A DNA stretch of 64,000 nucleotides from Shigella phage Shfl2: the sequence record HM035025. One strand, given 5' to 3'. Positions 50,187 to 54,194 of the stretch are shown piece by piece. Made by a program: the position numbers and the translations under genes. The notes below the pieces were generated by a model, which saw only the letters and a list, made by a program, of their open reading frames with translations, made no database searches and was not told the DNA's origin. How positions within the stretch are numbered: the first letter of the stretch is position 1; every line of letters begins with the position of its first letter.

Positions 50187-51155
50187 TTATTTCAGAAGAG
50201 TAACTTCAGCGATTTCTTCCCAACCGTTTTTGTCGGTCATAATAAAGTCAGCAAGATAAAGAGCAGTACGCAGTGAAACATTGCGTAAACGATTAACATT
50301 AACTTTCATCCATGATAATGCTTTATAAGTTTCTTCATCAGAAAGACCGCGCTTTTGCATCATGTCAGTTGAAAGAATAACATCTTCAACCCTGACCATA
50401 ATTTCTTCATTAGTGTGAACACCCAAATCTAAATAAACTGAGCGGGACACTAATGCTTGTAAGTGTGGAGCAAGTTTAGTACCACGGTCTAATTCGCGGT
50501 CAATGTCAACGTTTGTGATAAAAACAATCGTTCCTTTAAATTCAAACTCACGGTCAATGCCTTTTTCTTCTAAGTAAGAAGATGCAGTGCTCCAGCAGAC
50601 TTTACGGGTCTCTCCGGTGTCCAGAGCGGCTTTTAGAAGATTAAGAATGTCCATATCAGAGAAAACATCCACATCATCAATCAAAAGGACAGAATTCTCT
50701 TCACGATTATTCCAAAGCTGCTCATAAAGACCAATACCAGAGATTTTACCATTAATGCTTTTATATTCAATGTATCCAATATCATTTGCTTTATTTAAAG
50801 CTTTATCTAAAGAATACGTTTTACCAATACCTGCTGCGCCAGAGATAATCAATGAACGAATATTTCCGTTAATAATACCATTCGTCATCATTCCCATAAC
50901 ATTAAATCTTTTATTAATGCGGGTTTTCATATCTTCATACGATTCTTTAACTTCTTCAACTTTTACACCATCATATGAAATATCTGATTTGTAAACCCAA
51001 ACACCGCGACGTTTACCGTCAATTTCAACAAAAACTTTACCATCTCCTTGTGCATCTACCGGAGCATTATCTGGGAACCATTCGCCTAAGAGCTCAAAAG
51101 TTCCAGAGATTTCTTTACCGAAGTAGATACCCTTATTGATAGTTACAGTTTTCAT
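50187..51155 (-). CDS. P-loop NTPase, AAA+-like
   Basis: Start at MKTVTINKG (322 aa); Walker A GAAGIGKTY, Walker B VLLIDDVD, sensor-1-like IVFITN. Confidence 0.6.
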   Translation of the reverse strand: MKTVTINKGIYFGKEISGTFELLGEWFPDNAPVDAQGDGKVFVEIDGKRRGVWVYKSDISYDGVKVEEVKESYEDMKTRINKRFNVMGMMTNGIINGNIRSLIISGAAGIGKTYSLDKALNKANDIGYIEYKSINGKISGIGLYEQLWNNREENSVLLIDDVDVFSDMDILNLLKAALDTGETRKVCWSTASSYLEEKGIDREFEFKGTIVFITNVDIDRELDRGTKLAPHLQALVSRSVYLDLGVHTNEEIMVRVEDVILSTDMMQKRGLSDEETYKALSWMKVNVNRLRNVSLRTALYLADFIMTDKNGWEEIAEVTLLK

Positions 51156-51262
51156 TTTATTCTCCAAATCCGTATCAGTTGATAGTTGTATAGTACCATC
51201 CAAATCCGTATCAGTTGATAGTTGTATAGTACCATAAAGCTTTATGCCTGTAAACCGTTTTG
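51148..51262 (-). repeat. promoter/5'UTR cassette with internal tandem duplication (2 x 36 nt)
   Basis: CCAAATCCGTATCAGTTGATAGTTGTATAGTACCAT occurs at 51164-51199 and 51200-51235 and again at 25321-25356; gtaaac -35 at 51251-51256. Confidence 0.75.
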
Positions 51263-51279
51263 TGAAAAATTTTTAAAAT

Positions 51280-51302
51280 AAAAAGGGAGCCCGAAGGCTC
51301 CC
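51280..51302 (-). terminator. intrinsic terminator
   Basis: GGGAGCC-UUCG-GGCUCCC hairpin followed by a U-run on the minus-strand RNA. Confidence 0.6.
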
Positions 51303-51304
51303 TA

Positions 51305-52318
51305 TCATTTATAATAACTTCGGTGGTTTTCAAGATAAACCCTCTCAAGGAAGTCATCCCAGAAACCCATGTCTACTTTTTGCTGCATACCGTTCTTAGA
51401 AGCTTCAATAGATGCTGCTTCTACTTGATCGACCACATCTTCCAAAAACTCTTGAACAGTTTTAAATGGGTGTTTACCCAGCTTCACGTCGAGAATAAAT
51501 GGAGCGTCTTGAAGTGGATAGACTAAGTCACCAGTTTTGTAAATTTCCAATAGTTGGAGTCCACCACGACAAGCATGGCTCAGAGCTTTCCAGTCAATAC
51601 CTTCATTCGCTTCAGCCTTACGAGCACGTTCACCATATTCAGCATCTAATTTGTTCAGTGACTGCTTAAGCTCAATAAGAGAAAGCGTTGTCTGATATTT
51701 ACGACCCAATACAGTGTAGAACGTTTGTGGACCTGTTTTCTCATGATTATGGAACACCCATTCACAGAATTCGTTTTCTGGAAGACGATTCTTAATATCT
51801 TCAACTTTAGTGCGACGCTGCTTAATAGAACCATCTTCTTGGTAATCAACCCATTGCTCAGGGATTTGATTAACTACTTTCAATACATCGCGTAATGCAG
51901 CCAAACGAGAACCCTTGACACCGTATTTAGAAGCTTGCTTGCGGACATATCCTAAATAGGATTTCATGTTAGTCGTATAAAAACGAGAACGGTTGTCTTG
52001 AATAAACTTCCACACATCAGGCAAATCAGATTTAACCACTAGTTCAGGCGGAGTGTGAAGCATATCCAATGCTACAGTTTCACCATCTGCTGCTAATTTA
52101 AAGAAATACTTAAGACTGTATAGTTCATGGTCAATATCATCTTTAGTGTTTTTAGATGATGTGTTGTTAGTGTTTTTACTCATGTGCTCTTTAACATTTC
52201 CGATAAGAATATCGCGAGCAGGAGGAACAAAAATTTCTTTAAAATCTACATCAGATTCTGGGGTAGAAGTTCCATAAAGATGACTACCAAAATAGCTTTT
52301 CATTACTGTTTTCATCAT
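51305..52318 (-). CDS. Pol-beta-superfamily nucleotidyltransferase-like protein
   Basis: 337 aa; N-terminal FGSHLYGTSTPESDVDF fits the hG[GS]-x9-13-DhD NTase signature, with a possible third acidic residue in ALDMLH. Confidence 0.5.
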   Translation of the reverse strand: MMKTVMKSYFGSHLYGTSTPESDVDFKEIFVPPARDILIGNVKEHMSKNTNNTSSKNTKDDIDHELYSLKYFFKLAADGETVALDMLHTPPELVVKSDLPDVWKFIQDNRSRFYTTNMKSYLGYVRKQASKYGVKGSRLAALRDVLKVVNQIPEQWVDYQEDGSIKQRRTKVEDIKNRLPENEFCEWVFHNHEKTGPQTFYTVLGRKYQTTLSLIELKQSLNKLDAEYGERARKAEANEGIDWKALSHACRGGLQLLEIYKTGDLVYPLQDAPFILDVKLGKHPFKTVQEFLEDVVDQVEAASIEASKNGMQQKVDMGFWDDFLERVYLENHRSYYK

Positions 52319-52776
52319 TCAGCCTTATATTCAATAACAGGACATACTTTAGCTTTACGAGCTTTTAAAAATTCGACGATAATAGATTTCTTGGGTTGAA
52401 TAGGAGGTAAACCTTTATACGCCCTATCAATATTTTCTACGTGTAAAGCATAATCCTTTTTCCATTTATAATCTTTATATTTTTCACGCAAATGTGCAGG
52501 AATAACAAATGAACCGATAATAAGTAAAACAACCAAAAGCGCAAGTATAAATGCCGATGGAAGAAGAGTCCATAAACTACCGAAAATAATCCAACGCTGT
52601 AGGCTTTCTGCACAAATAATTGTTAACCCTACGAGTATAGCACACCCAAAAATAGAAACGAAAAATGTAGGTATGGCAATAGACCAAAAATATGCGCATA
52701 GTGTCTTAGGTCGTTGCCATTCATCGTTAAACAATTTGAATAATTTATAGTGCCAAGAGTTTTCATTAATAATCAT
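52315..52776 (-). CDS. integral membrane protein
   Basis: 153 aa; two or three hydrophobic helices. Confidence 0.5.
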   Translation of the reverse strand: MIINENSWHYKLFKLFNDEWQRPKTLCAYFWSIAIPTFFVSIFGCAILVGLTIICAESLQRWIIFGSLWTLLPSAFILALLVVLLIIGSFVIPAHLREKYKDYKWKKDYALHVENIDRAYKGLPPIQPKKSIIVEFLKARKAKVCPVIEYKAE

Positions 52777-52778
52777 AA

Positions 52779-53300
52779 TTATCCTTTCATTGAAGGCGTA
52801 ACAGTTGTTAAATACTTAATCATAGCTTCAGCTTCTGATTTTGATAATGAAATTTCTCCATTGTTTTGACGAATAGAAATAAAATCCGGATGACGGTCAC
52901 CACCAGCTTTTAAAATACACATATAAGTATCAGTTTCATCTTCAATATCTGAAATGATTGAAGCAGTTCCGCATGAATGTGGTTTTTGATAAATCAATGC
53001 AGCTTTTCTTCCACCGTTTGACTGTTCATAAACTTTTAACACATCAAACAAATCACTTCTTTTATCAATAGCTAAAATGTTATTTTCATCTTCAATGTTA
53101 AATCCTTCGGATACTTCATAAAGTGTTACCCATAAATCACCAATGTCAATAACAGCATTTACGTTTCCACGGCTTTCAAGAGTATGACAAATTTTCTTGA
53201 TTTCATCATAACTCATTTTAATAATATCATCTCCTTGAATAAGGAAGATGTCATTTTTAAATTCAACGCGAATTAAACCGCTTCCACTTGAAATAAACAT
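52779..53300 (-). CDS. hypothetical protein, paralog pair member
   Basis: 173 aa; C-terminus ISLSKSEAEAMIKYLTTVTPSM matches the next ORF. Confidence 0.45.
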   Translation of the reverse strand: MFISSGSGLIRVEFKNDIFLIQGDDIIKMSYDEIKKICHTLESRGNVNAVIDIGDLWVTLYEVSEGFNIEDENNILAIDKRSDLFDVLKVYEQSNGGRKAALIYQKPHSCGTASIISDIEDETDTYMCILKAGGDRHPDFISIRQNNGEISLSKSEAEAMIKYLTTVTPSMKG

Positions 53301-53306
53301 ATTTCC

Positions 53307-53864
53307 TCACTTTGAAATCATAGTTGGAATAACAGAATCAAGATAAGTCTTTAGTGCAATAGCTTCGTCTTTGTTTAATGTAATGATATGTGATCGAAAA
53401 TCGTCAATTTGACGAATAGATACTACATCTCCCTCTTCATAGCATTTTGACACATTTAAAATAGTTTCATCATTCTGATTACAGGAGTTAGTAATAATAG
53501 CATTACATTTTTTAAACCATTTTAAATTATGTTTTCTTTTAGTAGAATCATAAAAATATTTAATGTTAGTTATAAAATTATCCCAATTATTAATTGATAA
53601 GCACATTGACTCGCTTTTAATATTAAATCCTGGGCATGAAGAATAAAAATGAATTTTATGCTCATCATTAATGTTTACAATTTTATCAGTGTAAGCATAT
53701 TCAATTTGGGTTAAACGAACAATTTCACTAGGCGTAAAATATAACATATCATCTTCTTGCGTCAAACGATACATGTTATTTACTTTTTCGATCGCTAATT
53801 CACCAAAAAGCACACTATCTTCTAATACTAATCGTTTCATATTGATTCTCTTCGACTCACTCAC
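53307..53864 (-). CDS. hypothetical protein, paralog pair member
   Basis: 185 aa; C-terminus ITLNKDEAIALKTYLDSVIPTM. Confidence 0.45.
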   Translation of the reverse strand: MSESKRINMKRLVLEDSVLFGELAIEKVNNMYRLTQEDDMLYFTPSEIVRLTQIEYAYTDKIVNINDEHKIHFYSSCPGFNIKSESMCLSINNWDNFITNIKYFYDSTKRKHNLKWFKKCNAIITNSCNQNDETILNVSKCYEEGDVVSIRQIDDFRSHIITLNKDEAIALKTYLDSVIPTMISK

Positions 53865-54194
53865 AATTACATACTCCTTTGAATAATATCAATAATGTTG
53901 TTCACCAGATTATAAGTAAACATCGGGTGATAATATTGAATCATCACATACACAACAAACAAAATTTTCATTCTCTTCTCCTTGGCAGTTGACAAGATTA
54001 CTATACCATAACCTTGCCAACTTGTAAACCATTAAATGACGTTTTCAATAAAATTCTGAAGCTTTGTGTGAGCATCAACCATGATTTTCATTTCTTCCTT
54101 TGCGAAAGCTGTACCTCTTTCTCGAGCAGAATACTCATAGTCAGAAACTGCATTAGCATATTCTTCAATTAGCTTCATTAAAAACATCTGCTTT

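Follow-up and report, generated by a model that had tools for sequence, protein, structure and literature searches.

The gene at positions 51305 to 52318 of the window (the whole analysed stretch of Shigella phage Shfl2 DNA, 64,000 nucleotides of sequence record HM035025) is nrdC.11. Judged by its sequence, the product is a nucleotidyltransferase (NTase) of the Pol-beta superfamily that can be assigned to the RlaP family (PF10127) as a divergent long member. What is new here is that NrdC.11 belongs to a structurally distinct long-form clade, which is set apart by a variable beta-rich insert and a divergent C-terminal half. The role that we favor, and consider probable but far from settled, is that NrdC.11 adds back nucleotides to healed 3' ends of RNA, ahead of their ligation by Rnl1 or Rnl2. 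The parts of the gene that matter for this assignment are the following:

51305 to 52318, minus strand: nrdC.11 coding sequence, 337 aa from an ATG start, a predicted long-form RlaP-family nucleotidyltransferase

52244 to 52291, minus strand: NTase signature FGSHLYGTSTPESDVD (residues 10-25), with G11-S12 and the carboxylates D23 and D25

52130 to 52132, minus strand: D63, the predicted third catalytic carboxylate (translation DIDHE), at the start of strand 62-68

51689 to 51862, minus strand: beta-rich insert subdomain, aa 153-210, variable in sequence and length

51311 to 51679, minus strand: C-terminal helical bundle, aa 214-336, HEPN-like, with invariant K244, H248, R251 and K279

The open reading frame is real, and a chance reading frame is excluded. 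An earlier note on this DNA had placed the frame at 51305 to 52318, and exactly these coordinates were recovered, on the minus strand and with a product of 337 aa. A second in-frame ATG at 52315 would give a protein of 336 aa and is the start annotated in phages T2, T4 and Lutter. The protein shares 99% of its residues with T2 NrdC.11 and 98% with T4 NrdC.11, both of which carry the RefSeq label 'nucleotidyltransferase', and the DNA of the region is 96-97% identical to that of T2 and other Tequatrovirus genomes. PHROG 388 ('nucleotidyltransferase') matches it end to end (E 1e-136). Homologs were found by tblastn in 1517 phage records, nearly all of them T4-like. The hosts of these phages include Escherichia, Klebsiella, Aeromonas, Acinetobacter and Vibrio, and Sinorhizobium phage phiM12 also carries a homolog. 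Among 1.84 billion cluster representatives, 3426 relatives reach E<=1e-3, and 833 of them also reach E<=1e-30. nrdC.11 is no discovery. It is a long-catalogued T4 gene, and its placement in the RlaP family is already known from the literature. A COG3541 nucleotidyltransferase domain match was published for its orthologs in 2006 (PMC1524935), and T4 NrdC.11 falls in cluster 5 of a recent RlaP similarity network (PMC12776372). The protein is also widely mis-annotated, appearing as 'thioredoxin' in many records.

nrdC.11 is predicted to be the final gene of a five-ORF unit under an early promoter. From promoter to terminator, its companions in the unit are:

54000 to 54028, minus strand: early-type sigma-70 promoter (TTTACA, 17-nt spacer, TG-TATAGT)

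53307 to 53864, minus strand: y05I-like paralog 1, 185 aa from GTG, matching PF24449 and PF24448, ortholog of T4 MobD.1

52779 to 53300, minus strand: y05I-like paralog 2, 173 aa, matching PF24449 and PF24448

52315 to 52776, minus strand: membrane protein, 153 aa, PHROG 944 'membrane protein', with 2-3 hydrophobic segments

51274 to 51303, minus strand: intrinsic terminator, stem-loop 51303 to 51284 with a UUCG loop and a U tract

The unit also includes a 34-aa hydrophobic ORF, listed between the y05I paralogs and the promoter. The Pfam families T4_y05I_N and T4_y05I_C are matched by both y05I-like proteins, which share 25% identity; paralog 1 is almost the same in sequence as T4 MobD.1. The stop codon of the membrane-protein gene overlaps the first ATG of nrdC.11 (52318) as ATGA, and the two genes are probably translationally coupled through this overlap. 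Directly after the nrdC.11 stop comes the terminator, with a stem of 8 bp (6 of them G-C pairs), the UUCG loop and then UUUUUAUUUU. It has a folding energy of -18 kcal/mol, with z = -3.9 against shuffled sequences. Phage vB_EcoM_Lutter carries this gene unit too, with a promoter and a terminator annotated at the equivalent places. The picture drawn in the earlier note, of a last gene behind a membrane protein and two paralogs that ends at a strong terminator, is therefore sound, both in its gene order, which Lutter shares, and in its hairpin.

The composition of the unit is not constant. In T4 the HNH homing endonuclease gene mobD occupies the site of the membrane gene and of the second y05I-like paralog. 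In T2 the membrane gene is shortened, and an extra gene separates nrdC.10 from nrdC.11. Homologs of the membrane protein are found near nrdC.11 in T2, Lutter, a Klebsiella phage (E 1e-23) and Acinetobacter phage ZZ1 (E 4e-7), in the last two within ~1 kb of it, and no such homolog lies near nrdC.11 in Morganella and Aeromonas phages. Because the neighbors differ between T4, T2 and Shfl2, these genes do not form a fixed functional module. Functional coupling of NrdC.11 to the membrane protein and the y05I paralogs was considered and rejected on the same variation, together with the absence of these neighbors from distant phages. nrdC.11 is itself dispensable in the laboratory, and a viable genome-reduced T4 has lost the fragment from nrdC.11 to mobD.3 (PMC9825161).

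The catalytic signature is strongly conserved. In 67 full-length homologs (34-55% identity) the residues G11, S12, G16, S22, D23, D25, N57 and D63 are invariant, and so, further along, are Y132, K244, H248, R251, P268 and K279. The G-S pair, the D-x-D motif and D63 are likewise invariant in the homologs of Sinorhizobium, Vibrio and jumbo Klebsiella phages (28-35% identity). An AlphaFold2 model built on the 67-homolog alignment has a mean pLDDT of 94.4 and a pTM of 0.83. Its core begins with a strand at residues 3-10 that leads into G11-S12; D23 and D25 come before strand 24-31, and D63 begins strand 62-68. As modeled, the three aspartates occupy the standard three-carboxylate placement of Pol-beta NTases. 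Beyond the core, helices extend up to residue 151 and are followed by a beta-rich insert (155-209) and a helical bundle (214-336). The predicted protein is therefore a Pol-beta-type NTase core followed by a HEPN-like helical bundle. Where NrdC.11 matches the Pfam RlaP profile (249 positions), the profile has no counterpart of the insert. The earlier note had called a Pol-beta NTase from the GS...DVD residues and had suggested that conservation in homologs and structure prediction be used to check the call. Both agree with it: the residues are invariant in all 67 homologs, to which D63 adds a third carboxylate, and the model contains the expected core with a pLDDT of 94.

Which NTase family is this? 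PF10127 (RlaP) is the only Pfam family to score above its cut-off (43.8 bits versus 23, E 3.4e-11). The match spans aa 7-135 of NrdC.11 and only positions 23-142 of the 249 in the profile. PF10127 is also matched by 66 of the 67 diverse homologs. Several other families were tried and rejected. The MNT/MntA antitoxins do not fit, as the NCBIfam MntA model, whose cut-off is 60 bits, reaches 13.2 bits and does so over just 18 residues. In addition, such an antitoxin is expected to have ~100-140 aa and a separate HEPN toxin gene, whereas NrdC.11 has 337 aa and a HEPN-like bundle fused to it. CCA-adding enzymes, poly(A) polymerases and OAS were set aside for want of a Pfam match, the generic NTP_transf_2 family scoring 13.9 bits against a cut-off of 21. 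A CD-NTase synthase of the cGAS/DncV type was dropped since PADLOC gives no match and no such structure is among the fold matches listed for the NrdC.11 model. CCA-adding and OAS structures are also missing from the matches listed, and Cid1 appears among the Foldseek matches only at a probability of 0.1 or less. Membership of the Hailong HalB family, with a HalA ion-channel partner, was rejected as well, because PADLOC matches neither NrdC.11 nor the membrane protein. Sequence searches of the PDB with NrdC.11, the clade profile and canonical RlaP returned no relevant match. The nearest solved folds belong to NTases that work without a template or on small substrates and that have a HEPN-like C-domain. 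The earlier note had left it undecided whether the enzyme makes or sequesters signaling nucleotides or modifies RNA. The second option gains from the PF10127 match, and the first loses ground, as no CD-NTase or OAS structure is among the fold matches listed.

Some background is needed to see what an RlaP might do in a T-even phage. The family was reportedly named by Burroughs and Aravind after its linkage to RNA ligase genes. T4 provided the first RNA-repair pathway, in which PrrC cuts tRNA-Lys and the damage is reversed by Pnkp and Rnl1. T4 Pnkp yields a 3'-OH, and Rnl1 and Rnl2 are 3'-OH/5'-P ligases. Another nuclease, RloC, excises the wobble nucleotide, which has been argued to impede T4-type repair (PMC2610378, PMC3458546). 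Phage RlaPs were earlier predicted to restore the nucleotides lost to RloC-type excision before ligation (PMC7824862).

Enzymes that bear on this prediction are the RlaPs of P. fluorescens and P. aeruginosa, described in a bioRxiv preprint of December 2025 by Carruthers, Fatma and Huang (PMC12776372). PfRlaP and PaRlaP add 1-2 NMP or dNMP to an RNA 3'-OH, are inactive on DNA and protein, and prefer Mn2+ (PMC12776372). Given a mimic of a cleaved tRNA, they prefer the break in the anticodon loop over the acceptor end, and RlaP increases the aminoacylation of a tRNA from which one nucleotide had been lost ahead of ligation. In vitro, RlaPs also label full-length tRNAs, rRNA-sized species and single-stranded RNAs, and do so with any NTP. 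The crystal structure of PfRlaP consists of an N-terminal NTase domain and a C-terminal helical domain that form a cleft. The authors of the preprint propose that RlaP is an antidote to nucleotide-excising ribotoxins such as RloC, and they make the point that its need for a 3'-OH is compatible with Pnkp/ligase chemistry (all PMC12776372). The statement in the earlier note that the function is unknown is therefore outdated at the level of the family (PMC12776372), and is still true for the phage protein.

How much does NrdC.11 resemble the characterized type? Bacterial genomes were scanned around an E. coli RtcB anchor, which gave 80 loci, and in 51 of them a canonical RlaP (~255 aa) lies directly downstream of rtcB. 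Comparing the NrdC.11-clade profile with these 51 RtcB-linked RlaPs in hhalign gives an E of 4.9e-5 with a probability of only 67.9% over 114 columns. The aligned region corresponds to aa 4-127 of NrdC.11, with GS, DxD and the third Asp in register. hhalign pairs the NrdC.11 signature with GS...DSDYD, and D63 with the D of DELD in the canonical proteins. The C-terminal half of the clade, compared with the canonical RlaPs in the same way, reaches only a non-significant E of 0.13. It is possible that the two share a K-x3-[H/Y]-x2-R helix (DWKALSHACR versus RLKKYFYVLR), a resemblance read from two consensus sequences. Since the C-terminal half cannot be aligned and there is an extra insert, the choice of substrate may differ from that of the characterized RlaPs.

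The second line of evidence is the company that the gene keeps. In the Shfl2 window no RNA ligase or repair gene adjoins nrdC.11. T4 is similar, with nrdC.11 at 55 kb, rnlB at 109 kb and rnlA and pseT at 134-137 kb (~50-80 kb apart). The immediate neighbors of nrdC.11 in T-even phages are unrelated to RNA repair. Outside the Tevenvirinae other arrangements are found. The phiM12 homolog lies between an Rnl2-type ligase gene (4.3 kb upstream) and an Rnl1-type ligase gene (4.5 kb downstream), all on the same strand. PseT-like and Rnl2-like genes lie upstream of the homolog on one IMG/VR contig (L093). On another (L095) the homolog is the first gene of a same-strand cluster and is followed by an ORF, an ATP-dependent ligase gene, a further ORF and RtcB. 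A further case is an rtcB operon in a Gilliamella MAG, where a canonical RlaP (229 bits, full length) is followed directly by a long-form RlaP of 353 aa that matches the NrdC.11-clade profile both N- and C-terminally (E 1.9e-26). Altogether, a ligase gene is close by in 3 of the 7 phage contexts outside the Tevenvirinae and in one bacterial operon. As a plain count rather than a statistical test, 3 of 7 is suggestive of a ligase linkage that belongs to the long-form clade itself in other genomes, and this too is new here. Records per host genus were also counted. NrdC.11, RnlA and PseT are found in 286, 287 and 286 Klebsiella phage records, in 81 Shigella phage records each and in 69, 69 and 70 Acinetobacter phage records. 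These nearly equal numbers were rejected as proof of a functional link, as all three genes may be near-core in the Straboviridae.

The mechanism that we propose builds on family membership, the conserved catalytic residues, the fold of the model and the proximity of the clade to RNA ligase genes in other genomes. Two divalent metal ions, by analogy with the Pseudomonas enzymes probably Mn2+, would be coordinated by D23, D25 and D63. An NTP and an RNA 3' end would bind in the cleft that separates the NTase core from the C-terminal bundle with K244, H248, R251 and K279, and one or a few nucleotides would be added to the 3'-OH without a template. During infection, host anticodon nucleases would cut tRNA and some of them, RloC for example, would also excise one nucleotide. 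T4 Pnkp (PseT) would heal the ends to 3'-OH and 5'-P, NrdC.11 would refill the missing nucleotide, and Rnl1 or Rnl2 would then seal the break. What we infer is that RNA is the substrate, how many nucleotides are added, in which order the steps take place and that the role is directed against nucleases. Some observations do not sit well with such a refilling role. An enzyme that adds nucleotides without a template cannot rebuild the modified wobble base of tRNA-Lys. Also counting against the role are the divergence of the C-terminal half, the absence of ligase linkage in T-even phages and the dispensability of nrdC.11.

What if NrdC.11 does act on RNA 3' ends, for a purpose other than refilling gaps in anticodon loops? 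This would rest on the same family and active-site evidence, and we consider it unlikely, if still the best of the alternatives. Examples would be the mending of trimmed 3' ends on phage or host tRNAs, or the tailing of host or phage RNA to steer its decay or processing early in infection. Such a purpose would suit an enzyme family whose specificity in vitro is loose (PMC12776372), a gene expressed from an early promoter and the lack of linkage to repair genes in T-even genomes. However, relatives within the clade cluster with RNA ligases, PseT and RtcB, which points to a role coupled to ligation. Moreover, RlaP preferred the broken end of an anticodon loop to an acceptor end (PMC12776372), and NrdC.11 matches no CCA-adding family.

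A less likely idea still is that the long-form clade is functionally as well as structurally distinct, in that the insert and the helical domain with K244, H248 and R251 redirect the acceptor or the product. The insert might recognize one specific broken tRNA, for instance, or the enzyme might carry out a HalB-like synthesis of oligonucleotides together with the co-transcribed membrane protein; either would be an example of such a distinct branch. If this were true, the branch would represent a previously unrecognized counter-defense activity of T-even phages.

Two further readings start from the predicted fold. NrdC.11 might nucleotidylate a small molecule or a protein, in the manner of the kanamycin and lincosamide NTases or the AMPylating MNT enzymes. 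Its fold matches include ANT(4'), LinB, AadA, DrrA and MNT-HEPN complexes, and an NTase core with a HEPN-like bundle is the KNTase architecture. These fold matches are weak and are all that the proposal has to draw on, and we think it very improbable. Least credible of all is that NrdC.11 is a HalB-like synthase of oligonucleotides, either protein-primed or free short oligo(deoxy)nucleotides, which would have the upstream membrane protein as its partner and whose products would act on that partner or serve as a decoy against host defenses such as Hailong: HalB is the nearest solved fold to the NrdC.11 model and Hailong likewise pairs an NTase with a membrane protein, but the identity is 16%, PADLOC matches neither protein, and T4 has mobD instead of the membrane gene, which is also missing beside distant homologs.

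Refilling of healed RNA ends before ligation remains the reading that we prefer. If NrdC.11 does refill excised gaps, T-even phages would already carry the missing third activity of RNA repair. The idea itself is in print for the RlaP family (PMC12776372, PMC7824862). What is added here is a test of family membership, the recognition of the long-form clade, the proximity to RNA ligase genes at the level of the clade and a correction of the 'thioredoxin' annotation. That T-even phages may be able to repair nucleotide-excising damage to tRNA is an attractive prediction.

It is useful to set NrdC.11 beside the systems that it most resembles. Kanamycin nucleotidyltransferase, or ANT(4'), shares with it an NTase core that leads into a HEPN-like helical domain. 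Unlike NrdC.11, enzymes of this type take a small-molecule acceptor, and the structural scores are weak and there is no family match. Hailong HalB (PDB 9dbh, 9dbj) is the oligodeoxyadenylate-synthesizing NTase of an anti-phage system. It differs from NrdC.11 in being a component of host defense, in having 217 aa and in lacking the insert, and the 16% identity is not accompanied by any match at the sequence level. The proteins of T4 (NP_049709) and T2 (YP_010073746) are products of the same gene in the same position upstream of nrdC.10. The characterized relatives are the RlaPs of P. fluorescens and P. aeruginosa, which are encoded between rtcB and rtcA. Compared with the RtcB-linked RlaPs of ~255 aa, NrdC.11 is ~80 aa longer, has the variable insert (aa ~153-210) and has a C-terminal half that cannot be aligned, and in T-even phages its gene adjoins no ligase gene. 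Like canonical RlaP, NrdC.11 has the GS/DxD/D set and, in the profile alignment, the first helices after the core, and going by its model it may also have a similar two-lobed build, with an NTase domain joined to a helical C-domain.

Around the nucleotidyltransferase gene nrdC.11, two further reading frames of the window need to be placed:

50187-51155, minus strand: nrdC.10, downstream of the nrdC.11 terminator
53867-53971, minus strand: hydrophobic small ORF of 34 aa (MKILFVVYVMIQYYHPMF...) with a good ribosome-binding site

The start of nrdC.10 is likely the ATG at 51155 rather than the TTG at 51203. Read from this ATG the product has 322 aa, the same as in T2. It matches PHROG 1250, a family of unknown function. 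A comparison with Pfam gave no match reaching the cut-off; the weak P-loop matches (AAA_14, AAA_22, and nSTAND3) all fell under it. Ahead of the gene, 51163-51234 is an exact tandem repeat of 36 nt (copies 51163-51198 and 51199-51234), and the duplication extends over part of the nrdC.10 early promoter, namely its -10 box, TACTAT, together with its leader. When a 201-nt query across the duplication was searched, the matching stretch in the best-matching phage genomes was just 165-167 nt long, and these genomes therefore carry a single copy. The repeat may be a genuine duplication of promoter and leader, or else an assembly artefact.

The small ORF lies directly downstream of the early promoter of the nrdC.11 unit and upstream of the y05I paralogs. 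In phage Lutter its counterpart carries a CDS annotation. For the membrane protein of this unit (52315-52776), comparison with homologs from Klebsiella and Acinetobacter phages (L088, 1392-1892; L091, 1661-2140) reveals conservation at both ends. Kept in these proteins are the N-terminus, N-x-[NKS]-[ST]-WH-[YF], and the basic tail at the C-terminus, whose last residues are K-(V/I)-C-P-x-I-x-(Y/F). The stretch between them is divergent.

Public names for NrdC.11 orthologs need care. Many GenBank and UniRef entries (P0004, P0006, and P0008 among others) call them "thioredoxin", apparently because the gene name nrdC was carried over, and one entry reads "putative HNH homing endonuclease". Both labels are annotation errors.

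How does the locus compare with its relatives? In T4, mobD, which encodes an HNH homing endonuclease, sits at exactly the position that two genes take up here, one for the membrane protein and one for the second y05I-like paralog (window 52315-53300 versus T4 locus L002, 12430-13209). The first y05I-like paralog (53307-53864) is the ortholog of T4 MobD.1. The window thus has the locus in a mobD-free arrangement. T2 differs at another point, having an additional 486-bp gene between nrdC.10 and nrdC.11 (L001, 4279-4764), annotated "RNA polymerase ADP-ribosylase". This insert is missing from the window, which makes the junction a variable spot. Beyond the phages, the rtcB operon of a Gilliamella MAG (L068, 898-5697) contains two ORFs without a Pfam match between rtcB and two tandem RlaP paralogs, one canonical (255 aa) and one long (353 aa). 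The long form carries the C-terminal motif DAKNMMHTIR, which is of the NrdC.11 type.
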